Part shown: positions 44,821 through 62,012 of the stretch, in pieces
Layout of the letters: every line of letters begins with the position of its first letter
How positions within the stretch are numbered: position 1 is the stretch's first letter
Virus record (IMG/VR): IMGVR_UViG_3300020576_002722
Location: 1 to 64,000 of that record
Origin: a virus
Taxonomy: Duplodnaviria; Heunggongvirae; Uroviricota; Caudoviricetes
Length of the DNA stretch: 64,000 bases
Direction: 5' to 3' (one strand)
Program-made: the position numbers and the translations under genes
Notes under the pieces: generated by a model
What the model saw: only the letters and a program-made list of their open reading frames with translations
Database searches by the model: none
Told to the model about the DNA's origin: nothing

Positions 44821-44822
44821 AG

Positions 44823-45068: not shown

Positions 45069-45074
45069 GCTCGG

Positions 45075-45096: not shown

Positions 45097-45432
45097 TCAG
45101 TCGTTGGGGTGTTTGAACGCGTTAGGGTCCTGTCCGGGACGTGTGATCGTATTGGTGCGCAGCACGAAGGCGTACACCGCACAGCCACCCACCGGAGTAA
45201 TGATGCCGTGCGACGTTATGGTGTACCCGTGGTCGAATGCCCACCGATAGATCACATCCAGTGAGTTCTCGTCCTCCGGGGTGAACGGAACCACCTCGCT
45301 GTACTCGAACCGGGCTACCTTGATGCGGACGCGCATCCCACGGCGTTCGGTCGGCTGCATGTACGTGCCGGTGGCCACCAGTGCGTTATTCTGGTGGTTG
45401 GCCCCTCGTTGTGTCATCCTGTTCTTTCTCAT
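45097..45432 (-). CDS. hypothetical protein (111 aa)
   Basis: The start MRKNRMTQRG lies 8 nt downstream of hairpin H1. The longer track ORF runs through the RNA elements. Confidence 0.55.
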   Translation of the reverse strand: MRKNRMTQRGANHQNNALVATGTYMQPTERRGMRVRIKVARFEYSEVVPFTPEDENSLDVIYRWAFDHGYTITSHGIITPVGGCAVYAFVLRTNTITRPGQDPNAFKHPND

Positions 45433-45440
45433 TGTCGTTG

Positions 45441-45458
45441 ATGGCGATGTGACGCCAT
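45441..45458 (-). promoter_or_regulatory. conserved-loop hairpin H1 (sense AUGGCG-UCACAU-CGCCAU)
   Basis: 6-bp stem and 6-nt loop. It is one of 8 copies with an identical loop and unrelated but complementary stems. Confidence 0.7.
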
Positions 45459-45460
45459 GT

Positions 45461-45500
45461 GCGCGTCCCGGAATCGAACCGGGACGTGAACCGTTCGCGC
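45461..45500 (-). ncRNA. tRNA-like element T2
   Basis: Sense strand: GCGCG-AACGGTTCAC-GTCCCGG-TTCGATT-CCGGGAC-GCGC, then AC. It is preceded by tandem stops TAG-TAA. Confidence 0.65.
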
Positions 45501-45503
45501 TTA

Positions 45504-45752
45504 CTATTCTTCGCCCTGAGCGATGACAGGGAGTCCGTGGAACGCTATGTCGTTCCGGTATGTTTCGAGCGCCTCTGCTATCGACCTGCATTCAGCGACG
45601 ACCCCCTCGGGGGTGTGCATGATAACGCGTCGGAAGCCCCTGGTGATGGCGATGCCTCGTAGCTGGCAGGCCAGCGACAGGGTGTCCCATTTGGTCCGGC
45701 GCGGGTCCTGCTGGGACTGGTGCCGGGTCATCGAGTGGTGCGCTGTGTACAT
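45504..45752 (-). CDS. hypothetical protein (82 aa)
   Basis: The ATG overlaps the upstream stop (TGATG). Confidence 0.5.
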   Translation of the reverse strand: MYTAHHSMTRHQSQQDPRRTKWDTLSLACQLRGIAITRGFRRVIMHTPEGVVAECRSIAEALETYRNDIAFHGLPVIAQGEE

Positions 45753-45961
45753 CACTTTTCCTCGTTGTAGTGTGACTGTGCCCGTCGCAGCGCATCAGCG
45801 AAGTCCGTCTGAGCCTCATTGGTATCGCAGTAGTGCATCAGGTCGGCCAAGATGTCGCAAACCGTGTTGGCGTTGTCGTCGGCACCAAGTTCGGCCACAT
45901 ACGCATCGACCAGCTTGGCACCCATTGCCGCCCGGTCCTTGTTCGTTCTTTCGATGTCCAT
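45752..45961 (-). CDS. hypothetical acidic protein (69 aa)
   Basis: The start MDIERTNKDR follows the A/C-rich leader TCAAACCAATACCCAAAACAAC. Confidence 0.55.
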   Translation of the reverse strand: MDIERTNKDRAAMGAKLVDAYVAELGADDNANTVCDILADLMHYCDTNEAQTDFADALRRAQSHYNEEK

Positions 45962-45983
45962 GTTGTTTTGGGTATTGGTTTGA

Positions 45984-46027
45984 GCCTGCGGGCGGAATCG
46001 AACCGCCCTGAGTACTCCATTGCAGGC
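45984..46027 (-). ncRNA. tRNA-like element T3
   Basis: Sense strand: GCCTGC-AATGGAGTACTCA-GGGCGG-TTCGATT-CCGCCC-GCAGGC, then TC. It starts 8 nt after the TAG at 46036. Confidence 0.65.
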
Positions 46028-46035
46028 TGCCGGGT

Positions 46036-46461
46036 CTACGACCACTCGGTGATCAGCGCCACTTTGTCGGCGTTCAGTCCCCACGTATTCGCCCGGTCGC
46101 GGAGCCTCGACTGGACCCCTTCTACCGTGCGCGACTGTTCGTATTCCTCGCCGGGTCCATCGTGCGCCGTTTGCATGTCCACGAAGAAATTCTGCGGCAA
46201 CACCGGCAGATAGTCCTTCGCAGCTTCATACACATCATCGTTGCGTATGAATGATGTGCCGCCGGAGTTCAACATCGAATCCAGCTTGACGGCCACATTA
46301 TCCGGCAACATGCAGCCGACGGCGCAGCTTGTTCCGCCCGGTCCACGATAGGCGCACCCTGTTGCTGGTGCCATTGCCCGACGCCTCTGCTTGGCCATGT
46401 GTTCGACGATGAAGTCGAACGTTTGCTGCATGTCCATCTTCTTGATATCCTCCGTGTTCAT
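46036..46461 (-). CDS. hypothetical protein (141 aa)
   Basis: Clean ORF. The ATG lies 11 nt after hairpin H2. Confidence 0.65.
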   Translation of the reverse strand: MNTEDIKKMDMQQTFDFIVEHMAKQRRRAMAPATGCAYRGPGGTSCAVGCMLPDNVAVKLDSMLNSGGTSFIRNDDVYEAAKDYLPVLPQNFFVDMQTAHDGPGEEYEQSRTVEGVQSRLRDRANTWGLNADKVALITEWS

Positions 46462-46472
46462 TGTTCATGTGC

Positions 46473-46488
46473 GGGCAATGTGATGCCC
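46473..46488 (-). promoter_or_regulatory. conserved-loop hairpin H2 (GGGCA-UCACAU-UGCCC)
   Basis: See H1. The spacer to the ATG is GCACAUGAACA. Confidence 0.7.
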
Positions 46489-46491
46489 TGT

Positions 46492-46530
46492 GCTGCCCCC
46501 GGAATCGAACCGGGGGAGAACCATTGCAGC
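46492..46530 (-). ncRNA. tRNA-like element T4
   Basis: Sense strand: GCTGC-AATGGTTCTC-CCCCGG-TTCGATT-CCGGGG-GCAGC, then AC. It starts immediately after the TAA at 46531. Confidence 0.65.
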
Positions 46531-47022
46531 TTACAGGTCGAGTGCGTCGATGCGCCCCACCATCTTGCGGGCCTTGGCGATGTCGCCCACCGTGGCCGTG
46601 CAGTGTACCAGATGCTCGGTGAGCACCTCGATCATGTCGCGGGCCTCGCGCAGCACACCGGACACCGTCTCGAAGTCCACGGGGACATCTTCGGACTCTT
46701 CCATCCATGCCGTCTCCACATACTGCTGCTGGCCGTACGTGATCACGCCCAAGCTCACCAAGAGCTTCAGCGCGTCGTGGATGTTGTTGAAGCCCCTGAT
46801 GGCCTGCACTCGTCCATCCACGCTGCCGTACACGGTCCAGAACACGCTGTTTGCTGGCGCATCCTCTGGAGGCTCGACGCCGTTGAGCGGTTGCGTATCG
46901 GTGCCGTCATCCATGCACAGGGAAAGCTCGTACGAGTTGAATGTACCGACATTGGAGGTGTCCTTCGTGAACAGCCACCGGTCGGGGCGCTTCTCGTCGT
47001 GCATCCGTTCTACTTTGGTCAT
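46531..47022 (-). CDS. hypothetical protein (163 aa)
   Basis: The start MTKVERMHDE lies 11 nt after hairpin H3. Confidence 0.65.
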   Translation of the reverse strand: MTKVERMHDEKRPDRWLFTKDTSNVGTFNSYELSLCMDDGTDTQPLNGVEPPEDAPANSVFWTVYGSVDGRVQAIRGFNNIHDALKLLVSLGVITYGQQQYVETAWMEESEDVPVDFETVSGVLREARDMIEVLTEHLVHCTATVGDIAKARKMVGRIDALDL

Positions 47023-47033
47023 TGGTTCATGGT

Positions 47034-47051
47034 AGCGCAATGTGATGCGCT
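47034..47051 (-). promoter_or_regulatory. conserved-loop hairpin H3 (AGCGCA-UCACAU-UGCGCU)
   Basis: Identical in sequence to H8. The spacer to the ATG is ACCAUGAACCA. Confidence 0.7.
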
Positions 47052-47121
47052 GGTGGAGCCGGGGGAATCGAACCGCCCGCGAATGCGCTCTACTTGCTGC
47101 GCAAGGGTACCATAGCTCCAC
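47051..47121 (-). ncRNA. tRNA-like element T5 (69 nt, D-arm-less, encoded A-CCA end)
   Basis: Sense strand: GGAGCTA-TGGTACCCT-TGCGC-AGCAAGTAGA-GCGCA-TTCGCG-GGCGG-TTCGATT-CCCCC-GGCTCC-A-CCA. It has an extra hairpin with a 10-nt loop in place of an anticodon arm, and one C:C mismatch in the T-stem. Confidence 0.55.
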
Positions 47122-47128
47122 GCCTTCT

Positions 47129-47884
47129 TCACGATAGCCTGTTGGCGCTCGATGTTGCACCGGACACCGGCCTATTGAAATTCACATTGTCTCCAGCAGA
47201 ACGACCGGAGTTGTAGGCATCCCTGCTTCCTGCGTGTCTGCGGCTTGTCGTGGTCCGCAGCTTCACCCCAAGGTCGCCCAGATACTTCTTGTACTTCTGG
47301 ACGGTCACATTGCTCTTCACGACCATAATGGCCGTGCATGAGTTGCCCTCTGCCGCCTTTCGCTCTGCCACCATGCGACGTAGTCGTTCGGCGATACGTG
47401 ATCCCATGCCGAGCATGAACGAGGCACGCAGAGTACGACCGTGCATACTGGTACCGCCATCTCGTTTGAGGCGCTTCAATTCAGCCTGCTTCAGCTTCCA
47501 CGCCTGCTCCATAGCTCCCTGTATCATGTCGCACAGGTAGAAGGCCATCTCGGTGTCTTTGGCGGTTCCGAAGTATAGCATTTCGCCGTTGTACCACTTC
47601 GTCACCTTGGTATCGGTGAACTCGGAAATGGCAACGGAGCACGAGTTTACCACCTCAGGCCACCTGTTCATATTCACGCCCGTGGCGTACGGACGCTTTC
47701 GGGCACCGTACTGGTCACCCATGATGGACGCCTCGTCCATAGTGATGTTGTATTCGCGGATAAGGGAGTCCAACTTCTGTGCTGCCGCGATGGCCTCTGC
47801 CTCAGTGCAACCGTTGCTAACGGTACGCGCCTGAAGCTCCCGGATGATGCGGGCTATCCGCTCCCGATTAACGTTCTGTTCCAT
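47129..47884 (-). CDS. DUF2786-like protein (251 aa)
   Basis: The N-terminus ERIARIIRELQARTVSNGCTEAEAIAAAQKLDSLIREYNI resembles the DUF2786 helix pair common in phage and plasmid proteins, recalled from memory. Confidence 0.65.
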   Translation of the reverse strand: MEQNVNRERIARIIRELQARTVSNGCTEAEAIAAAQKLDSLIREYNITMDEASIMGDQYGARKRPYATGVNMNRWPEVVNSCSVAISEFTDTKVTKWYNGEMLYFGTAKDTEMAFYLCDMIQGAMEQAWKLKQAELKRLKRDGGTSMHGRTLRASFMLGMGSRIAERLRRMVAERKAAEGNSCTAIMVVKSNVTVQKYKKYLGDLGVKLRTTTSRRHAGSRDAYNSGRSAGDNVNFNRPVSGATSSANRLS

Positions 47885-47895
47885 TGTTCATGTGT

Positions 47896-47913
47896 ATACC
47901 CATGTGAGGGTAT
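47896..47913 (-). promoter_or_regulatory. conserved-loop hairpin H4 (AUACCC-UCACAU-GGGUAU)
   Basis: The spacer to the ATG is ACACAUGAACA. Confidence 0.7.
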
Positions 47914-47915
47914 TG

Positions 47916-47972
47916 GAACGGTGGATGGTGTCGATCCATCAGCACGCGTGCTCACCGGCCGGGGCACCGTTC
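47916..47972 (-). ncRNA. tRNA-like element T6 (divergent)
   Basis: Sense strand: GAACGGTG-CCCCGGCCGGTG-AGCACGCGTGCT-GATGG-ATCGACA-CCATC-CACCGTTC. It has an 8-bp closing stem, and the T-loop departs from the TTCGA consensus. Confidence 0.45.
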
Positions 47973-47977
47973 AGGTA

Positions 47978-48370
47978 TTACATTAGGCCCAGACCACGCA
48001 GGGCGCTCATATCCTTGTCGAAGCTCGCCGGCCACTTCACCGTGGACAGGTCGCGCACGAACGTCGACGCCTCCGCGTCAAGGAACAGGCACCCACCGAT
48101 GGACACCTTGAATGGGTTCGGTTGCAGCCCGTTCCACGCTGCGAACGCCAGAGGGTCACTCATGGCGCTCGGAGCCTTCTTCAGTAGCCGCATGTGCTTC
48201 TGTGGCCCGACCTTGTAGAAGGCCCTCTGGATGGCGTCCAGATGCGTCTGCGGGATGTCGCACCCGTGCTGCGCCTTGTGGATGTCCTTGGCCACGTTCT
48301 GGGCCAGTTGCAGTGCGGTCATACGTTGGACCTTGTCGGCGTGCTCTGCGTACGCCTTCGCTGTGCTCAT
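47978..48370 (-). CDS. hypothetical protein (130 aa)
   Basis: Clean ORF with the A/C-rich leader AAACCAATACAACCACAGAACA. Confidence 0.65.
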   Translation of the reverse strand: MSTAKAYAEHADKVQRMTALQLAQNVAKDIHKAQHGCDIPQTHLDAIQRAFYKVGPQKHMRLLKKAPSAMSDPLAFAAWNGLQPNPFKVSIGGCLFLDAEASTFVRDLSTVKWPASFDKDMSALRGLGLM

Positions 48371-48394
48371 TGTTCTGTGGTTGTATTGGTTTGT

Positions 48395-48434
48395 GCCCGC
48401 CGTGGAATCGAACCACGGCGTGAACCGTTCGGGC
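48395..48434 (-). ncRNA. tRNA-like element T7
   Basis: Sense strand: GCCCG-AACGGTTCAC-GCCGTGG-TTCGATT-CCACGGC-GGGC, then AC. Its first G is the G of the upstream TAG stop. The linker is identical to T2 while both stems differ by compensatory changes. Confidence 0.65.
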
Positions 48435-48538
48435 TACTGGTCGGCCAGTGTCTGGTCGTCGGGCCGCTGTTGCGACCGCTTCTGTTCAGCCTTGCGGCGT
48501 TCGTGCTCTTCGCGGAGCACCTGTGTGTAGTGCGTCAT
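48434..48538 (-). CDS. possible micro-ORF (34 aa)
   Basis: The sequence MTHYTQVLREEHERRKAEQKRSQQRPDDQTLADQ starts 2 nt after the upstream stop. The rest of track ORF 48434..48697 overlaps the previous gene. Confidence 0.3.
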   Translation of the reverse strand: MTHYTQVLREEHERRKAEQKRSQQRPDDQTLADQ

Positions 48539-48540
48539 AG

Positions 48541-48765
48541 TCAGTTCAGGGTGAGTCGTGGTACTACAACGAAGGCCCCCAGTTCCCGGTGGAACACGTA
48601 GCGTGCCCCGATAGTGGAGCACAGGCATACACGGCCCTCGGCCATCAGTACCCGTGCATAGGTGGGCACCTTGTCGATGGGGTCGAGTCGTAGGCACCCG
48701 TCTATCAGGTGCCCGTCAAGGTCGTGGGCCAGCGCTGCGGCCCGCTCTTGGTCCTTGGTATTCAT
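48541..48765 (-). CDS. hypothetical protein (74 aa)
   Basis: The ATG lies 10 nt after hairpin H5. Confidence 0.55.
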   Translation of the reverse strand: MNTKDQERAAALAHDLDGHLIDGCLRLDPIDKVPTYARVLMAEGRVCLCSTIGARYVFHRELGAFVVVPRLTLN

Positions 48766-48775
48766 TCGTCAGTGG

Positions 48776-48793
48776 ACGGCAATGTGATGCCGT
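48776..48793 (-). promoter_or_regulatory. conserved-loop hairpin H5 (ACGGCA-UCACAU-UGCCGU)
   Basis: The spacer to the ATG is CCACUGACGA. Confidence 0.7.
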
Positions 48794-48796
48794 TGT

Positions 48797-48838
48797 GCGC
48801 GGGCAGGGAGTCGAACCCCGCCCTCGGACCATCCGCGC
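48797..48838 (-). ncRNA. tRNA-like element T8
   Basis: Sense strand: GCGC-GGATGGTCCGA-GGGCGGGG-TTCGACT-CCCTGCCC-GCGC, then AC. It starts 2 nt after the TAA at 48841. Confidence 0.6.
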
Positions 48839-48840
48839 TG

Positions 48841-49122
48841 TTACTTCCACACTTCCGCCACCACCTCAGGTGGCGCATCCTCGGTCGCCCTGCACATTTC
48901 CCAACCAGTGGTGCTCAGGATGGCTTGGCCGTACTTCTCGTCGCACTTGACACTGACCACTTGCCCTTGGTGTACCGGGTTGGACCCATAGGCCGACGGA
49001 TACGCCTCAAAAGCCTCGCCATCGCGAGCTATCAGGATGGCGTGCCTCAGGCCGAACGAATTGGTGTTGGTGGACAAGATGGCCACCTTGAACTCCTTAC
49101 GGAGCATGGATGTCTGGTTCAT
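48841..49122 (-). CDS. hypothetical protein (93 aa)
   Basis: The start MNQTSMLRKEF is at the ATGA overlap with the small zinc-ribbon ORF. Confidence 0.55.
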   Translation of the reverse strand: MNQTSMLRKEFKVAILSTNTNSFGLRHAILIARDGEAFEAYPSAYGSNPVHQGQVVSVKCDEKYGQAILSTTGWEMCRATEDAPPEVVAEVWK

Positions 49123-49268
49123 CGCTTTGCTGGTGTTGGTTTCTTCTCGGTGTAGAACATCATCCCGCACTGGTAGCAGCGGAAATGGATGATGGTGCCC
49201 ATGAGTCCCATAGGCGCGTTGGTCGTGCTGCACATGGGGCAGCTACGGCGTACTCGTTGCCATGCCAT
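49119..49268 (-). CDS. small zinc-ribbon protein (49 aa, below the track cutoff)
   Basis: Hand translation: MAWQRVRRSCPMCSTTNAPMGLMGTIIHFRCYQCGMMFYTEKKPTPAKR (CPMC...CYQC). The ATG lies 10 nt after hairpin H6. Confidence 0.45.
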   Translation of the reverse strand: MAWQRVRRSCPMCSTTNAPMGLMGTIIHFRCYQCGMMFYTEKKPTPAKR

Positions 49269-49278
49269 TGTCTGTTGG

Positions 49279-49294
49279 TCGCAATGTGATGCGA
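49279..49294 (-). promoter_or_regulatory. conserved-loop hairpin H6 (UCGCA-UCACAU-UGCGA)
   Basis: The spacer to the ATG is CCAACAGACA. Confidence 0.7.
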
Positions 49295-49297
49295 TGA

Positions 49298-49342
49298 TCG
49301 CTGTCTGGACTCGAACCAGATGTCCCGCCTATCGGGCAGCGA
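49298..49342 (-). ncRNA. tRNA-like element T9 (acceptor, D-arm-like hairpin and T-arm)
   Basis: Sense strand: TCGCTG-[CCCG ATAGG CGGG]-ACA-TCTGG-TTCGAGT-CCAGA-CAGCGA, then TC. Confidence 0.55.
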
Positions 49343-49376
49343 AGGGTGCGCTACGTCCTTGGTGGCGCGGTATTGG

Positions 49377-49763
49377 TCAGCCTTGGTTCACCGGCTGAAG
49401 GTGTGCGTTCAGTGTGCGGCCATCGGGCATCAGGAAGAATTGCGGGTTGAACTCGCCCCACTTCTCAGCTTGCGGGCCAACGAGGTAGCCCTTGCCGCCC
49501 CGGTTCCAGTACACGGCGATGGCCTCTTGTCCGAGGGTTTCAGACAACCGGTGGACAAGTGTCTCTTCAACGGCATTCCACCCGGCAGCGCCAACCTCCA
49601 CTACCATCGTCGGTTCGGTGTTGCTGTTTATCGGGCCGTGAAAGGTGAGCGGAGCGTGGATGCCTGTGTCGGTCGGATACGTCCTTCGCACCGCATCCAT
49701 TACCTGTTCTACGGTATTGGTTCCGCCGTCCGGCCTGTTGAGGCCGATGTTGAGTGTGAACAT
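49377..49763 (-). CDS. hypothetical protein (128 aa)
   Basis: The start MFTLNIGLNRP is chosen 9 nt after hairpin H7, by analogy with the other units. An in-frame ATG inside the hairpin (49790) is possible. Confidence 0.6.
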   Translation of the reverse strand: MFTLNIGLNRPDGGTNTVEQVMDAVRRTYPTDTGIHAPLTFHGPINSNTEPTMVVEVGAAGWNAVEETLVHRLSETLGQEAIAVYWNRGGKGYLVGPQAEKWGEFNPQFFLMPDGRTLNAHLQPVNQG

Positions 49764-49772
49764 TGCTTGGGG

Positions 49773-49790
49773 ATGTCCATGTGAGGACAT
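49773..49790 (-). promoter_or_regulatory. conserved-loop hairpin H7 (AUGUCC-UCACAU-GGACAU)
   Basis: The spacer to the ATG is CCCCAAGCA. Confidence 0.7.
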
Positions 49791-49792
49791 TG

Positions 49793-49860
49793 TGGACCGT
49801 ACGGGAGTCGAACCCGCCGTCAAACCCCACCCGGGGCGGCCCTGTATTGCTCCACGGCTC
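49793..49860 (-). ncRNA. tRNA-like element T10 (about 68 nt, non-canonical core)
   Basis: Sense strand: GAGCCGT...CCCCGGGTGGGG...-GCGGG-TTCGACT-CCCGT-ACGGTCC-A-C. The acceptor has 7 bp with one mismatch. The D and anticodon regions cannot be drawn canonically. Confidence 0.45.
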
Positions 49861-49877
49861 AGTACGTCTTTTGAGGG

Positions 49878-50114
49878 TCAAGCTGCGTCGGGCCCTGAAG
49901 GCATTTCTACCACTTCCTCGTCCCATGTTTCTACCTCGGCCTCGGTGTCTTGGGTGAACTTACCCACGTCTGCAAGGTATTCCGCGCCTGCGGCAAGATT
50001 CTCCTTCAGTTCTTGGATGGATGCCCCGTTCATGGTGTATTCCACCTCGATAGTCAGTCTCAGTTTAGCGGTCTTCATGTTCGTGCTATGCTTAGCGCTT
50101 GTCTTGATATCCAT
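49878..50114 (-). CDS. hypothetical acidic protein (78 aa)
   Basis: The first gene of the small-gene block. The ATG lies 9 nt after hairpin H8. Confidence 0.6.
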   Translation of the reverse strand: MDIKTSAKHSTNMKTAKLRLTIEVEYTMNGASIQELKENLAAGAEYLADVGKFTQDTEAEVETWDEEVVEMPSGPDAA

Positions 50115-50123
50115 GGCCTTGAT

Positions 50124-50141
50124 AGCGCAATGTGATGCGCT
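50124..50141 (-). promoter_or_regulatory. conserved-loop hairpin H8 (AGCGCA-UCACAU-UGCGCU)
   Basis: The most upstream copy. No full tRNA-like element precedes it, only the hairpin CCGGG-AGCGATG-CCCGG at about 50148-50170. Confidence 0.7.
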
Positions 50142-50659
50142 GCCTGTCCACCGGGCATCGCTCCCGGACCTCGTTGGCGGTTAATTACTCCGCCACGTTG
50201 CGCTTCATTAGCTGAACAGGTTGTGCGATGTTTCCGTTATCGTGCATCGCCTCACTGGCCCTTTCATGAGGTGGAGCCATACCCGGTGGCGCATTACGGT
50301 GCGCTCTACCTGCGCCCCCTATCCCGCATCGAAGCGGGTGGCCACGTAGTGACGGTGGTCGCGTCCTGCTAGGGGGTATAGTTCCAAGATGTCAAAGAAC
50401 GCGCTCTAGGTCACACCGCACCGTGTTTCTCGGTACAGTCCCGTTCCCAGCGGCCTTCCTACGGGCCATCGCGGCTAGTAGTTTCGGCACCACATCATGT
50501 GGCTGCTGGTCAGTGCGTTACGTGTGAAAGAACGACGCCTAGCTTGGTGGCCCTCACGGGTGACTGTTGCCGAACGCGATGCAAGTGTAGGCTGCCGCAT
50601 GGCCACCGACCTAATTTCCAGTGACGAACGGTTGGGAACGGGACGAACGGTTGGCCAGA

Positions 50660-50890
50660 CTAGGTGGCTTGATCGCCTGGAGGCCGCGATACTGTAGGCC
50701 AGAACGACATCTTGTAGCCAAGTAGCTGCAAATAGGCTTGGAGCGTAGACATGGACGTGGTAAGCACGTTGGCTTCGAGCCTGGCCACGGTCACTGGCTT
50801 CACCCCGATGCGTTCGGCCACGTCCGCTTGTGACCACCCGAGCCGCCTGCGTTTGGCGATCACAAAGTTGTCCATCTTGCGCCTGGCCAT
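50660..50890 (-). CDS. XRE/Cro-CI-family helix-turn-helix regulator (76 aa)
   Basis: The sequence is MARRKMDNFVIAKRRRLGWSQADVAERIGVKPVTVARLEANVLTTSMSTLQAYLQLLGY. A class I -7 box lies 4 nt upstream of the ATG, which predicts a leaderless transcript. The N-terminal extension in the track is not credible. Confidence 0.75.
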   Translation of the reverse strand: MARRKMDNFVIAKRRRLGWSQADVAERIGVKPVTVARLEANVLTTSMSTLQAYLQLLGYKMSFWPTVSRPPGDQAT

Positions 50891-50894
50891 GCCC

Positions 50895-50902
50895 CAAAGG
50901 TA
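50895..50902 (-). promoter_or_regulatory. class I -7 box TACCTTTG (CTTACCTTTGGGGC-ATG)
   Basis: Four nt separate the box from the HTH gene's ATG. Confidence 0.5.
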
Positions 50903-51158
50903 AGCGGCCACGCGGATACGGTGATCACGCTGCCCATGCGATAGCGATAGGAGCGGATAGCCCGCAGCCCGAAGGGCGAGGACTATGAGCGGATAGCGCG
51001 GGCCGAAGGCATCGCCCAAAGGATGGAAGCACTCTACTACAAGAGAGAGAACATGCTGGTGATCAGGCTGTTGGACCGGTAACACGTAGACACATAGCCA
51101 TATCACTATGTGTAAGCCCTTTCTCGGGGACAATAGGTGAACGCGTGCGCGTGGTGAT

Positions 51159-51386
51159 CTGGTGGCTGATCTTGGGTAGTGGTGGCCATGTTGGGGACTA
51201 TCCCCACGCCCACGACATTAAAAGGCCCACCAGTCAAGGCTTTCCACTCAAACGCGTGCCCATACACGTACACCCCTCAAAGGGCTCACCCCTCACACAC
51301 TGGTGGCCAGAGACAAGGTGGCCAGTGATCAGGTTTGACCTGTTATTGGTGGCCCAGACTAGGATCCCTTTTCACTTTGTGGCCCC
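51159..51386. repeat. cluster of GGTGGCC(A/C) repeats in the divergent control region
   Basis: Copies lie at about 51161, 51181, 51302, 51317, 51349 and 51379 (TGTGGCC). Further copies, some inverted, lie at 50547, 50599 (ATGGCCACC), 50651 and 50664. Confidence 0.55.
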
Positions 51387-51412
51387 GATCGAGGCGACCC
51401 GTTTCCCTTTTT

Positions 51413-51442
51413 GGGAGGCCAGGGGGGAGGGCAAGGGGGGGG
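51413..51442 (+). other. G-quadruplex-type G-tract motif including a G8 homopolymer
   Basis: GGG-AGGCCA-GGGGGG-A-GGG-CAA-GGGGGGGG. Confidence 0.4.
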
Positions 51443-51566
51443 AGTCCCCCAAATTCAGATATACCGGGCACCCCTTTTCAGGCAAGCCAGGGGGTATCCG
51501 CCCCATACCGGTACCTGCTTGTATCGAATTTCATGATCAAAGCGAAACACATCCCAGGAGTTGTAT

Positions 51567-51574
51567 TACATTTG
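51567..51574 (+). promoter_or_regulatory. class I -7 box TACATTTG (TTACATTTGCGGGCAT)
   Basis: It lies 18 nt upstream of the ATG at 51593. The 16-nt context is identical to the copy at 52060-52075. Confidence 0.55.
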
Positions 51575-51592
51575 CGGGCATAAACGATACAC

Positions 51593-51820
51593 ATGACTAT
51601 AGACACACTGATCATCGCAGCCTGGGCCACCGCCTCCCTTGGTGTGTTCGCCTATGGCGTGCAGGAGATCCTCTTGGATGGGGGCGAGGATGACTTCGGG
51701 AACAAGATGAGGCACCGGATCGACATCCCTCTGCTCATGGCTACCACCTGGCCACTATGGTGCCTTGTCGTGTGGCCGGCTGAGGCTATCACATGGATCT
51801 GGAAAAAGCTGGTACGATGA
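51593..51820 (+). CDS. small membrane protein (75 aa)
   Basis: Two hydrophobic segments. Confidence 0.55.
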   Translation: MTIDTLIIAAWATASLGVFAYGVQEILLDGGEDDFGNKMRHRIDIPLLMATTWPLWCLVVWPAEAITWIWKKLVR

Positions 51821-52035
51821 GCCCAGTATCACGAGCAGCCTACCAGAGGTACCTCAGGTGGGACAAGAACCCGATCGCCAAGAGAACGGTCGGCCGCCTG
51901 TCGGTCTGCTTCATCCGTGGCCTGGATGACGAGGCCAAGAAGTTCGTGCCAGCCACCCGGTACCGGAACCTGGAGAACGAGGTGGCCACACTGAACGGAT
52001 GGAACCTCGGCCCGGTCCAACCATCCATCACTTAG
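51817..52035 (+). CDS. hypothetical protein (72 aa)
   Basis: The start MSPVSRAAYQ is at the ATGA overlap. Confidence 0.5.
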   Translation: MSPVSRAAYQRYLRWDKNPIAKRTVGRLSVCFIRGLDDEAKKFVPATRYRNLENEVATLNGWNLGPVQPSIT

Positions 52036-52060
52036 CACTTGCACTATCAGAAATGGCGCT

Positions 52061-52068
52061 TACATTTG
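52061..52068 (+). promoter_or_regulatory. class I -7 box TACATTTG (CTTACATTTGCGGGC-ATG)
   Basis: It lies 5 nt before the ATG at 52074. Confidence 0.5.
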
Positions 52069-52073
52069 CGGGC

Positions 52074-53063
52074 ATGAGTCTGAACGAGTACCTGCGACAG
52101 AAGGTCCATTACATCCGCAAACAACGGAAACAGCTTCCGAACGACGCCTGGCACATGGACGATAGCACTCGTCAACAGATGCGCGACATCATCAGTGACC
52201 TTGGGGCACTGCAAGATATTCAGGCCGGCAGGCGCAAGGTGCTTCCTGGTGTCGTCGACAGGACCAAGAGTGGACCTATTGCGCACCCGGATGAATACGG
52301 ACCCGTGATCTATCGGTACGACGGGGTCGTCTATCGCCGGAAGAACGGAGTCACCACCGCCCTTGTTGAGCTGGATGAGACGATCAAGTGCGACGGATGC
52401 AACGTCTACCCAAACCAAGAAACCAACAACACACACATGGTAAGCCAAAGCAAGATCGATGAGGCCAAGTCCAGGGGTATTGTACCTGGAGCAACGATCA
52501 AGTGCGCATCGGTTCCCGACAGGTACGGCGTGGTCATGCCCACCTCGTACTGGAGGACAACGAGTGGCGGGGCTATCGATGTCGGCCTCGACAACAAGGG
52601 CACACAACTGTTCGCCTACTCCGGAGTGTTCAACAAGTGGTCCGAAGTGATCACCCTGGCACCGCCACCCATCGGGCTCCAGCCACAGGACGCCGTGAAG
52701 GCATCAGGGGCAATGCTCGCCGCCATCGCCGACAGGGCCGCCGAACTCGGGCTTCTCGACAGGAAGTTCGCGGGTGAGAACGGATCCGACTACCTGAATA
52801 GCGTGTCGGTACACTGGGACCCGACATGCTATTGCCCACTCCAGGTCGGCCACACACACGTCAAGCATAACCTTCTGACGCCGGACGAGTTCCTCCGTCG
52901 CCTGGAGAGCACGGTGTTGCAGCCTGTCACCAAGATCACAGAGCCGCGCATTGGCCGCGATCTTGAGCACACGGTCAAGTTCAACAAGGGCTCCATCACC
53001 GTTGGACGCACGACCGTTCCCAATGAAACCGTCCGCAAGATCGCGGCAAACCTCAAGGACTGA
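52074..53063 (+). CDS. hypothetical protein (329 aa)
   Basis: The start MSLNEYLRQK is chosen downstream of the promoter box. Alternative ATGs lie at 52053 and 51999. Confidence 0.6.
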   Translation: MSLNEYLRQKVHYIRKQRKQLPNDAWHMDDSTRQQMRDIISDLGALQDIQAGRRKVLPGVVDRTKSGPIAHPDEYGPVIYRYDGVVYRRKNGVTTALVELDETIKCDGCNVYPNQETNNTHMVSQSKIDEAKSRGIVPGATIKCASVPDRYGVVMPTSYWRTTSGGAIDVGLDNKGTQLFAYSGVFNKWSEVITLAPPPIGLQPQDAVKASGAMLAAIADRAAELGLLDRKFAGENGSDYLNSVSVHWDPTCYCPLQVGHTHVKHNLLTPDEFLRRLESTVLQPVTKITEPRIGRDLEHTVKFNKGSITVGRTTVPNETVRKIAANLKD

Positions 53064-53248
53064 TGACCTACCACATCGTTCAAGCGCTTGCCCTGGCCGT
53101 GGCCCTGTGGCTATCCGGTAACTACGTCGGCAACCTGGCTGTGGCTATCAAGGAGCACAGCAATGTTGCTGTGTCAAAGGCCAATATCAGCCTGCGGCTA
53201 TCAGCCATAGCGTGGGCCATATTCTGGTACATGTCATGGGGACACTGA
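53063..53248 (+). CDS. small membrane protein (61 aa)
   Basis: TGATG overlap with the upstream stop, and two TM segments. Confidence 0.5.
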   Translation: MTYHIVQALALAVALWLSGNYVGNLAVAIKEHSNVAVSKANISLRLSAIAWAIFWYMSWGH

Positions 53249-53439
53249 GACTGTTCCTCCTGTGCGTGGCCGGGTTCTCGCTCATCCTGTGGCTGGCAGA
53301 GTCTATCGATCAGCGGGCCACTATGGGCAGGAATCGCGTATACGTAGACCGAAGTACGTACGAGCCTGCCATAATGAGACCCATCTGGTGGGCAGCGGTA
53401 GCCATTGTGTCGACCTGCGCAGCCTATGCGCTTTCATGA
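53236..53439 (+). CDS. small membrane protein (67 aa)
   Basis: MGTLRLFLLCVAGFSLILWL... and a C-terminal TM segment. Confidence 0.5.
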   Translation: MGTLRLFLLCVAGFSLILWLAESIDQRATMGRNRVYVDRSTYEPAIMRPIWWAAVAIVSTCAAYALS

Positions 53440-53731
53440 GCTGATCCTCGTGGCCCTGGCGGCTGCATCGATCGGATACCAGCTGACGGATTTCGGGATC
53501 ATGTGGGAGGACGAGTTCCACATGATCCCGCCCGCTCGTCTATTGATACACGAGCCCCGTCGAACTTCATTGCCGTTCTACCATCCAGAGGCTACCTTTG
53601 TGAGGAGGAGATCTATCAGAAGGTCTTCTGTCCGAAAAAACGAGGATGAAATACTGGATCGCGTTCATCGTTGCTCTCTTCTGCCTGGACTCGTGCGCCC
53701 AGAGGTTGATGAGGAGCCACCTGGTTGGTGA
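53426..53731 (+). CDS. possible small membrane protein (doubtful 3' part)
   Basis: MRFHELILVALAAASIGYQL looks real. The Arg-rich tail overlaps the next gene. Confidence 0.3.
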   Translation: MRFHELILVALAAASIGYQLTDFGIMWEDEFHMIPPARLLIHEPRRTSLPFYHPEATFVRRRSIRRSSVRKNEDEILDRVHRCSLLPGLVRPEVDEEPPGW

Positions 53732-54026
53732 CTCTACCTCCAAGTGCATCCTGGTGATCAGGGACATGGACTCCTATGGCGATCCGAAGGCGTACGAGTT
53801 CCGCAAGTACAACGCCTTCAACCTGAAGCCCGGTGACTACCTGATCGGGTACTTCATCGACACCGGCTTCGTACACACCGAGATCATGCACGTCTCCCAC
53901 GAGAAGAGCGTGCAGGACCAGTTCATCCTGATCCGTCCGGTTCCACTCCACAAGGTGCGCTTCGCGCCTGCTGACAACGGGGACTCCACATCGTTCTTCT
54001 TTGATCTCGATTACCTGGACCCATGA
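53646..54026 (+). CDS. lipoprotein (126 aa)
   Basis: Signal plus lipobox: MKYWIAFIVALFCLDSC. Confidence 0.6.
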   Translation: MKYWIAFIVALFCLDSCAQRLMRSHLVGDSTSKCILVIRDMDSYGDPKAYEFRKYNAFNLKPGDYLIGYFIDTGFVHTEIMHVSHEKSVQDQFILIRPVPLHKVRFAPADNGDSTSFFFDLDYLDP

Positions 54027-54107
54027 AACGAATGACCCTCTTCATCAACGAGGGGTTCGCCACTGCGGTAGCGATCCTTCTGATGGTTCTGTTCTGCTGA
54101 CAGTGGG

Positions 54108-54115
54108 TACCTTTG
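54108..54115 (+). promoter_or_regulatory. class I -7 box TACCTTTG (GGTACCTTTGCGGT-ATG)
   Basis: Four nt separate the box from the ATG at 54120. Confidence 0.5.
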
Positions 54116-54119
54116 CGGT

Positions 54120-56063
54120 ATGGCAACCCGCACCGGTACGATCTTCGTCCTGAACTTCGACCCAAGGCCAGTGCCATCGGGTGACATCTGGATCGAGGTT
54201 CCGGGTGAGTACGACCAGGCCACCAACACCCGCAGGTTCAAGTTCAAGGTCGGCACCGGGCAGACCGCTTACAAGTATCTCCCGTACGGGCTGATCGGAG
54301 AGGAGACCGCCGCGCCGGCATCGACCGGCGGCAACATGGTCGGTCCCGCGTCGAGCACCGACAACGCACTGGTCCGATGGGACGGCACCACCGGTAAGCT
54401 GACCCAGAACTCGGTCATCGTCGTCTCTGACCTGGGAGCCATCACCGGGATCCTGTCGCTGAACGGGAACACGTTCGGGCCTACCCCAGGGGTACTGATC
54501 GTCCAGGGCAACGCGCTCACCCTCCTGTCGTCCGGGGCAGCCGCCGCAGGCCAGGTGGCTACCGCCGATGGGGCCGGCAACATCACATGGGTAACACCGA
54601 CAGCTGGGACAGGAGACGTCGTTGGACCGGCATCCGCCGTAGATGGCCACATCGTACAGTTCGACGGGGTAACCGGTAAGCTGATCAAGGACGGCCTGGC
54701 GACGTCCGCCGGCGGGAACGGTACGGCCGACTCCGGGAAGGTCCCTGTGTTCGGCGCTGACGGAAGCCTGTCAGTGGCCAATACAGGAGGCTCCGGATCA
54801 GCTCTGCTGGCCACGTCCGACGTTGCCTTCTTGCCCGCCGTGAACGCACTCAGCAATGGGAGCGGGCCGGCCGGCGCATTCTACAACAGCTCCACCGGCG
54901 ACGGGGTCAACGCATCGGTGAACGACGGGTACGCCGTATTCGGACTGAACGACTCGATAACGGCACCCGCTGGCCACTTCCAGAACGTGGACCCCACGAA
55001 GACTGGGGACCTTGGGCAGTTCCACAATGCCGATGACGACGGGCTCATCATCGAGAACGACGGTGGCCTCGACTGGACGACCCCTACTGGAGCGCAGTCA
55101 ACGGCCACCAATCTGCCCGTGTTCAGTGCTCTCAAGAAGGGAGTCGTGCCGGCGGCCGGCGCAGTACCATCGGCCACCAAGTTCCTGGACGAGACCGGGG
55201 CCTGGGCAGTTCCTCCGGACACCGATACCGGGATCACCCAGCTCACTGGAGATGTCACGGCTGGGCCTGGAAGTGGATCGCAGGCAGCTACGCTCGCCTC
55301 CGTCATCACGGCTGGTGGGCCGACGGGTAGCGCTTCGGTCGTCCCGGTCATCACCTATGACGCCAAGGGGAGGTTGACCGCCGTGTCCACGGCAACCATT
55401 ACACCTGCCGCTATCGGCGCTCCGGCCGGGTCAGGTACAAGTACAGGAACGAATACCGGGGACCAGACCAACATCTCCGGGAACGCGGCAACCGTTACCA
55501 CCAACGCCAACCTCACCGGCCCGGTCACGTCGGTAGGTAACGCCACCACGATCGCGGACCCAGAGCTGGCGGCTATCGCAGCCCTGACAAGCGCAGCGGA
55601 CAAGACCATCCAGTTCACTGGATCCGGAACGGCGGCACTGGTGAACTTGAAGGAGGGTCCGGAAGCGGCCTACACTGGAACGATCACATGGACAGCCGGA
55701 GCGGCCCCGTCTGGAGCGTCGTCACTCAGGCAGTTCTATACACAGGTCGGCAACCAGGTGTCGTGGCAGATCAGCTTGACGTACGCCAACACCGGAACTA
55801 CCGTAACGAACGTAGTGTTGACCTTCCCCACTGAATTCCCGACACCCGCGATACCATCAGGCTTCACGGGTGCCAGCGTTCGCCTGTACAGTTGCGACAA
55901 CGTACGCTTGTTGAGTACGCCCACCGGCTCGCTCGCTAATGCAACGGGCTTCTTCGTGATGCGGAACGCGGCTGATACCGGGTTCGATATCAAGAGCACT
56001 GGTACGTTCGCATCCGGATCCTATCGCACGTTCATCTTCGGTGGAACATATTTCACCTCCTGA
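54120..56063 (+). CDS. second tail fibre protein
   Basis: 647 aa. The repeated motifs are MVGPASSTDNALVRWDGTTGKLTQNS and VVGPASAVDGHIVQFDGVTGKLIKDG. The sequence is Gly/Thr/Ala-rich, and the segment KKGVVPAAGAVPSATKFLDETGAWAVP is fibre-like. Confidence 0.8.
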   Translation: MATRTGTIFVLNFDPRPVPSGDIWIEVPGEYDQATNTRRFKFKVGTGQTAYKYLPYGLIGEETAAPASTGGNMVGPASSTDNALVRWDGTTGKLTQNSVIVVSDLGAITGILSLNGNTFGPTPGVLIVQGNALTLLSSGAAAAGQVATADGAGNITWVTPTAGTGDVVGPASAVDGHIVQFDGVTGKLIKDGLATSAGGNGTADSGKVPVFGADGSLSVANTGGSGSALLATSDVAFLPAVNALSNGSGPAGAFYNSSTGDGVNASVNDGYAVFGLNDSITAPAGHFQNVDPTKTGDLGQFHNADDDGLIIENDGGLDWTTPTGAQSTATNLPVFSALKKGVVPAAGAVPSATKFLDETGAWAVPPDTDTGITQLTGDVTAGPGSGSQAATLASVITAGGPTGSASVVPVITYDAKGRLTAVSTATITPAAIGAPAGSGTSTGTNTGDQTNISGNAATVTTNANLTGPVTSVGNATTIADPELAAIAALTSAADKTIQFTGSGTAALVNLKEGPEAAYTGTITWTAGAAPSGASSLRQFYTQVGNQVSWQISLTYANTGTTVTNVVLTFPTEFPTPAIPSGFTGASVRLYSCDNVRLLSTPTGSLANATGFFVMRNAADTGFDIKSTGTFASGSYRTFIFGGTYFTS

Positions 56064-58487: not shown

Positions 58488-58584
58488 GATTGGAGGAGGC
58501 AAGGGTAAGAGGTATCACTGAGTAATGCAAGAGGAATTTTCGCCTCACAGGTCAACTCGCTGATACTCAGGTGGAAAATTTCCT

Positions 58585-58594
58585 ACCTTCGCAT
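58585..58594 (+). promoter_or_regulatory. class II motif TACCTTCGCA
   Basis: Fourth copy, 22 nt before the ATG of the small + strand gene. Confidence 0.45.
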
Positions 58595-60749: not shown

Positions 60750-61204
60750 AGTTTCCAGAGATTCTTCTCAAAGGTATCAGGAATCCTGAAGTCGATGATC
60801 TCTCGGACCACGTTCCAGTTGAGGCCACCCAGGTGGCATCCGATCAATGGGAAGTTGATCGCAAGTGTTCCGTCGATCGCAGCCAAGACGGCTACCTGTT
60901 GCATACACGCATCCATCGCATCGTAACTCGCATACTTCCTCCCGTCCTTTCCGTAGAACTCCTGCGTGAAGCAGTTCATGACGATCGTGTTGTCGCTGCC
61001 GAACAGATGTACCTCTTGAACGTCACCAAGCAAGTGGCCTCCAGGTCTCTTGGACGCAACATGCTTCAAGTACTCAGTGAACACTTTGGGCCACTTGTTC
61101 CGGATGGCGAGCGCCACACCAGATCCCATCACGCCTTGGGTATTAACCCCGTGCAGGATGATGCCTTTCGCGGTGAGAAGGTCACCCTTGATCTCGTTGA
61201 TCAT
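60746..61204 (-). CDS. macrodomain protein (ADP-ribose-binding/hydrolase, Poa1p-like)
   Basis: The sequence is MINEIKGDLLTAKGIILHGVNTQGVMGSGVALAIRNKWP...NFPLIGCHLGGLNW. ATGA overlaps at both ends. Confidence 0.8.
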   Translation of the reverse strand: MINEIKGDLLTAKGIILHGVNTQGVMGSGVALAIRNKWPKVFTEYLKHVASKRPGGHLLGDVQEVHLFGSDNTIVMNCFTQEFYGKDGRKYASYDAMDACMQQVAVLAAIDGTLAINFPLIGCHLGGLNWNVVREIIDFRIPDTFEKNLWKL

Positions 61205-61986
61205 TTGAAGTAGGAGTCGATGCGTTCGCGGATCTCCCTCATGCTTCCAGCCCTAGTGATCACCCCGTCAGCGAACACCACATCGAAGGCGCAGTCGTGA
61301 ACATCTTCCCATGATGCCTGCTCCTGCAATAGGAACCCGTGATCGTGGTCGTGGTGTACAGCCAGGAGCCCCTTGGCGCTGTTCTTTCCACCATTGTCGG
61401 TCTTCGGCTTCTTGAAGATCTCGCGAGGCTTGTAGTTCACCACTCCGTAGGTGGCCTTGATCGCCATGCCGTAGGTGTCACGGGTCACATACTGGTACGT
61501 GTAGCTGCCGATGCCGAACACGACATTGGTGCTGGCGAACCCTTTCGCGATCAGCCTGTCGACGATCTTCTGGGCACGCTCCGGGGTGATGCTGTCTCCG
61601 TAGATGGCACCGATATGCGGGTCGAGAACCTTGAATCCCTTCTCGTTCACGGTACCTCCGAAGGTGTTCCATAGGCACTCAATGAGCCCTTTGCCCTCTG
61701 GGGTCATCTTGGTAAAGGTTCTAGTACCAGGAAGATGGTATCCGCACAGGATGTCCACCGGATCCCCGCTGTCTGGCCTGATCACCACCTTGCCTTCACG
61801 ATTCATGATCTCTGATTTCAGGGCCGGCAGATACTCGGTGACCACCTTCCAGAAGTCCCATGTGTCGCTGACGATGCTGATGATCCCGGACGGATGTACC
61901 TCAGTGATCAGGCGCTTGAAGTGGAGAAATTCCCCTCTTGTAAGTCTCTCTTCTTCAGAGAGTTTCCTTGTCCGTGTTTTCTTCAT
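61201..61986 (-). CDS. NAMPT/Namat-like phosphoribosyltransferase, C-terminal half
   Basis: FKRLITEVHPSGIISIVSDTWDFW, VVIRPDSGDP, IYGDSIT and VFGIGSYTYQ are the conserved C-terminal NAMPT motifs. The gene has its own ATG (MKKTRTRK...). Confidence 0.85.
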   Translation of the reverse strand: MKKTRTRKLSEEERLTRGEFLHFKRLITEVHPSGIISIVSDTWDFWKVVTEYLPALKSEIMNREGKVVIRPDSGDPVDILCGYHLPGTRTFTKMTPEGKGLIECLWNTFGGTVNEKGFKVLDPHIGAIYGDSITPERAQKIVDRLIAKGFASTNVVFGIGSYTYQYVTRDTYGMAIKATYGVVNYKPREIFKKPKTDNGGKNSAKGLLAVHHDHDHGFLLQEQASWEDVHDCAFDVVFADGVITRAGSMREIRERIDSYFK

Positions 61987-61993: not shown

Positions 61994-62012
61994 CTGTCGT
62001 TAACATGACCCT

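Follow-up and report, generated by a model that had tools for sequence, protein, structure and literature searches.

The DNA analysed here is a stretch of 64,000 nucleotides (hereafter the window), positions 1 to 64,000 of the IMG/VR virus record IMGVR_UViG_3300020576_002722 from the class Caudoviricetes, in which an 8-nucleotide (nt) promoter-like box, TAHHTTTG or a close variant of it, lies 4–7 nt ahead of the ATG of six genes. We think it rather probable that at least three of these six genes are expressed from messenger RNAs that are truly leaderless or that begin within 3 nt of the start codon. In the mechanism envisaged, the primary sigma factor of the host, of the sigma-ABfr type, would read TAHHTTTG at positions -12 to -5 as its -7 element. 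Transcription would then begin on the A of the ATG at 50890, 54120, 20114 and 52074, and 2–3 nt upstream of the ATG at 14094 and 30710, and the resulting mRNAs with their 5'-terminal AUG would be translated as leaderless messages. Two junctions at which a tRNA gene is followed by C and then ATG would yield near-leaderless mRNAs, with the same reliance on 5'-proximal AUGs. That the boxes are promoters for the primary sigma factor of the host seems, from the sequence, very likely.

The preliminary description of this DNA had singled out two promoter words, and every site that it listed is present, the sole correction being a shift of one of them from 58585 to 58584. The first word, in the form TANNTTTGNGG (TAnnTTTGNGG), has five matches in the window against 0.72 expected, and none of 100 shuffles reached five; the second, TAMCTTCGCA, has four against 0.13 expected, a number likewise reached in 0 of 100 shuffles. 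Taken bare, the 8-mers are weakly or not enriched over the window as a whole (TANNTTTG, 16 matches against 9.4; TANNTTCG, 17 against 14.9). Twelve of the 21 matches to TAHHTT[TC]G lie wholly within the 8.8% of the window that is non-coding on the curated gene map, where shuffled non-coding sequence leads one to expect 1.9, and the density of the motif is 14-fold higher in non-coding than in coding DNA. An unbiased scan, in which all gapped and ungapped patterns with six specified bases in four layouts were ranked by non-coding enrichment, bears out the supposed enrichment of the motif: TAnnTTTG comes first among approximately 16,000 patterns, with nine of its 16 matches in non-coding DNA (p = 1.4e-6). 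The corresponding fractions are 6/17 for TAnnTTCG, 13/93 for all other TAnnTTNN words and 83/688 (12%) for the generic TAnnnT, which is barely enriched relative to the 8.8% non-coding share. Since the enrichment is confined to the TTTG and TTCG extensions, it points to the 8-nt Bacteroidota type of element and not to a generic -10 hexamer.

TAHHTTTG has 12 matches, ten of which have, within the next 60 nt, the ATG of an open reading frame (ORF) of at least 60 codons. Nine of these ten occupy genuine upstream positions; the tenth, at 2980, is inside a gene. The boxes share the orientation of the gene downstream, and the box at 24335 precedes a cluster of four tRNAs; the signal therefore works on transcription and not on translation. 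We propose from this pattern of sequence and placement that some 13–18 boxes mark the starts of transcription units.

The gap between box and gene was counted from the final G of the box to the nearest downstream ATG with an ORF of 60 codons or more. It is 4 nt for the boxes at 50902 (minus strand), 54108 and 20102 (both plus strand), 5 nt for that at 52061 and 7 nt for those at 14079 and 30695 (all plus strand), the respective starts being 50890, 54120, 20114, 52074, 14094 and 30710. The original statement that boxes stand 4–5 nt from the ATGs at 50890, 52074 and 54120 thus agrees with the measured gaps of 4, 5 and 4 nt. The gaps of the other boxes are 18, 19, 19, 24, 36, 45 and 58 nt, and the overall distribution is bimodal. 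An ATG opening such an ORF falls 3–8 nt past the final G in seven of 33 boxes, compared with 1.24 expected from an analytic background (binomial p = 1.9e-4). Six of the seven pairs are clean; the seventh, at 25622, is ambiguous, the predicted start falling within the box itself.

In Flavobacterium johnsoniae, the -7 element reads T-12 A-11 H H T-8 T-7 T-6 G-5 (TAHHTTTG), the start site lies 4–5 nt past the element, and there is a faint -33 element (PMC6847099). With this published distance, +1 is predicted to fall on the A of the ATG at the four sites with gaps of 4 or 5 nt and to leave a leader of 2–3 nt at the two sites with gaps of 7 nt. At four sites the box fills positions -12 to -5 relative to the ATG, and there is no room for a ribosome-binding leader. 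Conservation of the extended word reaches through a G/C-rich segment of 4–5 nt to the purine that follows it (GGGC-A, CGGGC-A, CGGT-A and, in the tRNA promoter, GGGC-G). There are two copies of the 16-mer TTACATTTGCGGGCAT: in the copy at 52060 the A belongs to the ATG, and in the copy at 51566 the same A would begin a 13-nt leader. Among 511 matches to TAHHTTTG in 100 unrelated loci (872 kb), none has the first ATG of a long ORF 3–8 nt away, the distances being at least 12 and mostly 12–32 nt, so that the arrangement is particular to the phage of the window and no by-product of the motif. A further case is provided by one of the near-identical contigs that were found in several metagenomes (L081–L083 and L104–L115); the sources of the relatives include JGI 3300033066 and 3300033070, the runs SRR32380195, SRR20818747 and SRR14092369, and ENA ERZ15184933. 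At position 19654 of L081, in a divergent junction, TACATTTG is followed after 6 nt by an ATG that is exactly the called start of a gene absent from the window.

The box at 50902–50895 on the minus strand has the sequence TACCTTTG, extended to CTTACCTTTGGGGC, and is followed by GGGC and the ATG at 50890, whose A is the predicted +1. The gene (50660–50890, minus strand) encodes a helix–turn–helix (HTH) regulator of the Cro/CI type with 76 amino acids (aa) and is the first of a leftward block; its mRNA is predicted to be leaderless. Its identity as an HTH regulator, as first proposed, is confirmed by a match to PF01381 (E = 7e-12) and by a PHROG transcriptional regulator match. HTH-family profiles begin at residues 8–12 of the 76-aa version. 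When the window is compared with L081, 16 of 18 substitutions within 50663–50890 are at third positions, compared with three of 16 upstream in the same frame (Fisher p = 7e-5). This pattern argues against the 101-aa extension called on L081 and supports the start at 50890.

At 52061–52068 on the plus strand, the box TACATTTG is followed by CGGGC and the ATG at 52074, the predicted leaderless start of a 329-aa protein with no known function (52074–53063, plus strand), whose translation could alternatively begin at an in-frame ATG at 52053. A different cassette takes the place of the upstream genes in L083, and homology resumes approximately 50 nt before the ATG at 52074, as expected if promoter and ORF move as one cassette. 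The box TACCTTTG at 54108–54115 (plus strand) is followed by CGGT and the ATG at 54120; the arrangement is identical in L081, L082 and L083. No earlier start codon follows the in-frame stop, and this ATG opens, with a predicted leaderless start, the gene of a 647-aa protein (54120–56063, plus strand) previously labelled a tail fibre. The label is weakly sustained: the protein itself has no family match, and one relative that carries its internal module gives a weak PHROG tail-fibre match. The module, at residues 375–490, is common to 99 viral stretches (80 loci kept) and to 20 genome loci, and a tail-fibre role is plausible from these sequence relationships.

The remaining three adjacent sites are on the plus strand. 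The variant box TACCTTCGCA at 20102–20111, with 4 nt between its G and the ATG at 20114, precedes a 97-aa gene (20114–20407) that begins at its first possible start, and the same start is called on six relatives' contigs. The variant TAACTTCGCA at 14079–14088 overlaps the stop codon of a 2753-aa gene and lies 7 nt ahead of the first possible start codon of a 1159-aa gene (14094–17573), for which a leader of 2–3 nt is predicted. The box TATCTTTG at 30695–30702 is 7 nt ahead of the ATG at 30710, which opens the gene of a 131-aa HNH endonuclease (30710–31105); the same start is called in six relatives, and PHROG HNH profiles align from residue 4. A strong terminator hairpin at 30640–30677 (dG -27.4, z -4.5) ends 17 nt ahead of this box and makes the HNH gene a self-contained unit. 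The ATGs at 54120, 20114, 14094 and 30710 are each the first ATG, GTG or TTG after the in-frame stop, and coding at these four ORFs therefore cannot extend upstream across the box. All six adjacent starts are ATG codons; initiation may instead use codons further downstream.

Gene calls on the relatives (L081 8476–8781 and 9868–10878; L083 519–1547) extend upstream across the genes' own boxes, giving 101 in place of 76 aa for the HTH gene and 336 or 342 aa for the 329-aa gene. These calls are likely to represent a systematic start-codon error for genes of this kind.

The preliminary description had taken the box for the -7 element of Bacteroidota. This reading of the element is sustained by the octamer-specific enrichment, the scarcity of Shine–Dalgarno motifs and the small number of sigma-70 promoters; the host phylum itself we infer. 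The main-family boxes never have G at -10 or -9, matching TAHHTTTG of F. johnsoniae. Shine–Dalgarno-like motifs precede nine of 74 genes, and the leaders are rich in A and C and poor in G. Such a 'non-SD' pattern characterises approximately 90% of FCB-group genomes according to GeneMarkS-2 (PMC6028130). Promoters with the sigma-70 consensus are depleted (one against 8.5 expected in 20 kb). Among the 20 genome loci that share the fibre module (residues ~375–490), ten are titled as Bacteroidota lineages and one as Ignavibacteria. On the strength of the scarce Shine–Dalgarno motifs, the depleted sigma-70 promoters and the relatives of the fibre module, the host is most probably a member of the Bacteroidota or a close FCB relative.

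A number of points nevertheless weigh against leaderless initiation from host promoters, and several of them favour the alternative in which the host promoters are real and the mRNAs are not truly leaderless, either because transcription starts elsewhere and gives a short leader or because another start codon is used. The ATG at 52053, in frame and 21 nt upstream of 52074, has an A-rich stretch ahead of it and was chosen by gene callers on the contigs of three relatives (L081, L082 and L083). Were it the start, the box would become coding (MALTFAG-MSLNEY...), or else the box would drive a product 7 aa shorter; the lone substitution between the two codons is uninformative on the choice. Judged from the sequence, both starts may be used, one on read-through transcripts and the other from the internal promoter. 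Initiation at codon 6 of the HTH gene, a second in-frame ATG 15 nt downstream, would leave a leader of 15 nt, and the two sites with 7-nt gaps would have leaders of 2–3 nt in any case. Leaderless mRNAs are, moreover, rare in Bacteroidota: 3.7% of 5' untranslated regions are shorter than 10 nt in Bacteroides thetaiotaomicron, 5.5% of mRNAs are leaderless in Flavobacterium psychrophilum, and 13% of leaders are at most 10 nt long in F. johnsoniae (PMC6847099). Folding of the first 45 nt does not differ between the candidate leaderless mRNAs and other genes (Mann–Whitney p = 0.19 and 0.84), nor does the proportion of G in the last 12 nt ahead of the start codon discriminate between them. The +1 positions at these ATGs are predicted with spacing rules from other species. 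The related contigs were found through exact-protein look-up and are 96–100% identical to the window around every site, and are thus evolutionarily uninformative. Few sites have more than a faint trace of a -33 element (TTTG, expected 19–21 nt upstream of the box), which is weak in F. johnsoniae as well: TTG is found at a spacing of 19 nt at 52061 and 24335, and TTTCGAT at 30695 and 62030, and no column is conserved over 21 aligned sites. Two further points of this kind are that the identity of the host is itself deduced and that the second word departs from the host consensus, as described below. We consider the alternative of short leaders or other start codons unlikely. In four of the six ORFs no possible start precedes the ATG, homology of the HNH protein begins at residue 4, and the alternative leaves as a coincidence the clustering of gaps at 4–5 nt, which equals the published distance from box to start. 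Nor does it sit well with the 0/511 boxes that show such adjacency in other phage loci.

Two other explanations concern the boxes themselves. The words could be sites for a phage-encoded factor, whether a sigma factor, an RNA polymerase or the HTH regulator, in which case TTTG and TTCG would define two temporal classes. They are conserved beyond what a host consensus would need, the 16-mer TTACATTTGCGGGCAT occurring twice and the 10-mer TAMCTTCGCA four times, and all four TTCGCA sites are on the plus strand and carry a C at -6 that is off the host consensus. The core, on the other hand, fits TAHHTTTG position by position; neither a sigma factor nor an RNA polymerase was seen among the proteins scanned (approximately 45 proteins in the case of the sigma factor), and the 2753-aa protein is without an RNA-polymerase-like catalytic motif. 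Unlike the usual HTH operators, the words are non-palindromic, and both families stand before mixed gene types and share an upstream element, common to the TTTG box at 24335 and the TTCG box at 41037. We regard a phage-encoded factor as improbable. It is more improbable still that the host lies outside the Bacteroidota and that the boxes are ordinary TANNNT -10 hexamers adjoining ORFs, as in Deinococcus-Thermus or Actinobacteria. TACMTT does fit TANNNT, 57.6% GC would be high for most Bacteroidota, good TTGACR -35 hexamers are present at 16 nt in two of the promoters, and a -10 box adjoining the ORF is documented in Deinococcota (PMC12340547). Against this, the enrichment is tied to the TTTG and TTCG extension, TAnnnT being barely enriched. 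Shine–Dalgarno motifs are confined to the nine genes of 74, although leadered genes of those phyla use such motifs, sigma-70-type promoters are depleted, and the genomic relatives of the fibre module are mainly Bacteroidota metagenome-assembled genomes.

The exact 10-mer TAMCTTCGCA is found at 14079, 20102, 25539 and 58584, always on the plus strand. It contains the same box as the first word, with C for T at -6 and with CA after the G. The copies at 14079 and 20102 share approximately 30 nt of upstream similarity ending in AATCAG. Gaps to the ATG are 4, 7, 24 and at least 58 nt, the same range as for the first word. The first word stands ahead of the regulator, genes of no known function, the fibre-like gene and tRNAs, and the second ahead of genes of structural size and small genes of no known function. 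A 16-nt element, CTAACKATTCGTCACA, is followed by 6 nt, TTGACR, 16 nt and a box in both the tRNA promoter (box TACATTTG, 24291–24342) and the promoter of the gene at 40357–41010 (box TAGATTCG, 41081–41030). The latter box, at 41037, has the TTCG core of the second word and is not the exact 10-mer. Copies of CTAACKATTCGTCACA lie at 24291–24306 (plus strand), 41066–41081 (minus strand) and 44806–44821 (minus strand), and a TTGACR-like hexamer and a -7-like box come after each at a constant distance; the last copy is degenerate, and its box is CATTTTTG. Since CTAACKATTCGTCACA and TTGACR are common to a TTTG-core and a TTCG-core box, this architecture cuts across both words, and it is possible from the sequence that CTAACKATTCGTCACA is an activator site or a UP-type element that defines a subclass of promoter. 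The suggestion in the preliminary description that the two words separate early or middle from late genes is not upheld, given the one-base difference in the core, the mixed gene types and the shared upstream element. We conclude from the sequence comparison that TAMCTTCGCA is the same element and does not form a promoter class of its own. Characterised Bacteroidota promoters have an almost invariant T at -6 (PMC6847099), and the TAMCTTCGCA family departs from TAHHTTTG at exactly this position, so that the TTCG sites may be weak or dependent on a factor, which is what is left of the argument for two classes.

Other boxes lie further from their genes or have no long ORF nearby. The box TACATTTG at 51567–51574 (plus strand) is 18 nt ahead of the ATG at 51593, with a predicted leader of approximately 13 nt. 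Another copy, at 24335–24342 (plus strand), is preceded by TTGACG (24313) and CTAACGATTCGTCACA (24291–24306) and stands ahead of the tRNA cluster at 24379–25142. Leadered transcripts are expected from TACCTTCGCA at 58584–58593 (plus strand), 24 nt ahead of the ATG at 58616 of a 117-aa gene, and from TACCTTTG at 53593–53600 (plus strand) and 60769–60776 (minus strand), which are 45 and 19 nt ahead of the ATGs at 53646 and 60749, respectively. On the minus strand, CTAACTATTCGTCACA, 6 nt, TTGACA, 16 nt and TAGATTCG together span 41081–41030 and end 19 nt ahead of the ATG at 41010 of the gene at 40357–41010. Back-to-back boxes occupy 61986–62030: TACTTTTG (61986, plus strand) is 19 nt before the ATG at 62013, and TATCTTTG (62030, minus strand) is 36 nt before the ATG at 61986. 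The promoter role of TACCTTCGCA at 25539–25548 (plus strand) is uncertain; it comes after the gene at 25143–25535 and is followed by a hairpin (25570–25597) and the next gene.

A further copy of TACATTTG, at 45082–45075 on the minus strand, is followed after 7 nt by an ATG that opens only 11 codons. Beyond this box, at 44776–45072 on the same strand, is a structured stretch of approximately 295 nt in which ORFs do not exceed 41 aa, and which contains a 10-bp long-range helix (fold z -2.9), ends at a strong terminator (44799–44776) and has no match in Rfam. It may represent a phage non-coding RNA or the transcript of a small peptide.

The tRNA–C–AUG junctions noted at the outset hold for both of the tRNA-to-gene junctions in the window, each of which reads discriminator, C, ATG. 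At 25141–25145 (plus strand), the discriminator T of tRNA-Gly is followed by C and by the ATG at 25143 of a 130-aa DUF5675 gene. At 38689–38685 (minus strand), the discriminator T of tRNA-Arg is followed by C and by the ATG at 38687 of a 246-aa gene with a DnaA-C-like HTH. Processing of the tRNA 3' end, which we presume to take place, would give a 5'-C-AUG mRNA with a one-nt leader at both.

Eight hairpins on the minus strand (window 45427–50143) each lie 8–11 nt ahead of the ATG of a minus-strand gene of the early block. They have a covarying stem of 5–6 bp, an invariant loop TCACAT (at 50135, 49784, 49289, 48787, 47907, 47045, 46483 and 45452) and no T-tract. In their alignment, 95.8% of cells are paired and 13 show compensatory double changes, values matched by 0 of 500 shuffles. 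The hairpins occur also in L081 (4431–8049) ahead of partly different genes, which suggests that they mark module junctions; a site of RNA processing or protein binding and a recombination boundary are candidate roles. We put forward as a tentative and somewhat doubtful idea that the phage organises its expression around 5'-proximal AUGs by several routes: boxes that abut ATGs, tRNA C-AUG junctions, and UCACAU hairpins, ahead of every gene of the early block, that perhaps set short 5' ends as sites of processing or protein binding. If it is correct, dependence on leaderless or near-leaderless initiation would be shown for a Bacteroidota phage for the first time, and the phage would be a natural toolkit for studies of Shine–Dalgarno-independent initiation on Bacteroidota ribosomes.

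The closest known counterparts are the sigma-ABfr promoters of Bacteroides fragilis, F. johnsoniae, F. psychrophilum and B. thetaiotaomicron (-33 TTTG and -7 TAnnTTTG). The window shares with them the 8-nt box and the avoidance of G at -10 and -9, as well as A-rich leaders without Shine–Dalgarno motifs and, as in F. johnsoniae, at best a weak -33 element. Its boxes differ in belonging to a phage genome that is much richer in GC, in their strongly conserved flanks (tTAC... and the G/C-rich 4–5 nt) and in the recurrent C at -6; and approximately 40% of the box–gene pairs have a gap of at most 7 nt, compared with 3.7–5.5% of leaderless mRNAs in the hosts studied. Promoter boxes that adjoin ORFs and give leaderless mRNAs are established in Deinococcus-Thermus (PMC12340547) and in Actinobacteria (group C of GeneMarkS-2, PMC6028130). 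The window has in common with that mode a downstream element a few nucleotides from the start codon, a predicted +1 at the A of the AUG and the lack of a ribosome-binding site, but its box is TAHHTTTG and not TANNNT, its leadered genes are also without Shine–Dalgarno motifs, and approximately six of 74 genes are affected.

A phage of Thermus, phiYS40, is said, in work of 2007 by Sevostyanova and colleagues, to exploit the capacity of its host for leaderless translation by means of promoter boxes adjoining ORFs. The cI mRNA of lambda from PRM is likewise reported, by Shean and Gottesman in 1992, to be leaderless. Regulators of restriction–modification systems, the C-proteins, also have leaderless mRNAs (PMC2632904). 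The window resembles the lambda cI and C-protein cases in that its divergent control region includes the gene of a small HTH regulator of the Cro/CI type, with an mRNA predicted to start at the AUG; the type of promoter and the host phylum differ, and neither operators nor autoregulation were identified in the window. The tRNA junctions recall the tRNA punctuation of mitochondria, since both coding sequences begin one nt past the discriminator. They differ from it in belonging to a bacterial phage, in numbering two and in the presumed nature of the processing.

Full-text literature searches yielded no report of the arrangement of box and ATG in a Bacteroidota phage. The mechanism is a known one, and what is notable on the sequence evidence is the share of predicted units affected, approximately six of 13–18. 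Bacteroidota ribosomes ignore Shine–Dalgarno sequences, and how they choose start codons is still being worked out. Were the leaderless starts to prove real, a box would abut the ATG of several genes, among them those of a regulator, a fibre-like protein and a homing endonuclease, which would mean that such hosts initiate on leaderless mRNAs efficiently enough for selection to favour it. The compact cassettes of promoter plus ORF, with approximately 50 nt of control sequence, would be potential genetic tools for Bacteroidota. Gene callers extend such genes upstream across their own promoters, and recognition of the boxes could improve the annotation of start codons and promoters in Bacteroidota phages.

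The window has 57.6% GC, and its ORFs are tightly packed on the two strands. It contains five tRNA genes, an Rfam scan finding these five tRNAs and nothing else. A DnaB-like helicase, an RNA ligase, a metallophosphoesterase and HNH endonucleases are among the phage functions recognised in it. The phage is novel, and the window covers part of its genome. No relative at the DNA level was found among 50,697 deposited phages, and most of its proteins have no family match. DNA and protein searches of INPHARED for distant relatives gave nothing useful, DnaB alone being matched, at less than 30% identity. Scans of IMG/VR returned no relatives of the 329-aa and 1159-aa proteins and, for the 647-aa protein, the internal shared module and nothing more; a search of 5.8 billion proteins returned near-identical homologues only.

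Some further features of the window were seen in passing. Compared with L104 and L105, the window lacks 4 nt (TCTC) at approximately 19031. This deletion splits a 762-aa gene containing DUF2793 into the ORFs 17791–19095 and 19017–20075, and it reflects either a frameshift mutation in the window copy or an error of assembly. The gene for nicotinamide phosphoribosyltransferase is also split, its N-terminal half at 62622–63452 and its C-terminal half at 61201–61986 (both on the minus strand). Between the halves is a plus-strand ORF of 220 aa with no known function (62013–62675), flanked by back-to-back -7 boxes, and the split (61201–63452) may result from the insertion of a mobile gene.

Near residue 970, the 2753-aa protein (5820–14081) has an HExxH motif; it also has long segments that are coiled-coil-like or of low complexity, and it matches no family. 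We considered whether it could be a virion RNA polymerase of the N4 or crAss-like type that reads the TCACAT hairpins and rejected this, since no DxDxD-type catalytic motif occurs in a plausible context and no family match was found; it more closely resembles a giant polyvalent protein or an ejected virion protein. Finally, the heptamer GGTGGCC has 59 copies in the whole window against 13 expected, seven of them in the divergent control region of 1 kb that surrounds the HTH gene (50337–51354), and the same region contains two copies of the direct repeat GACGAACGGTTGG (50623–50654). These repeats may be operators, iterons or a word skewed throughout the genome.

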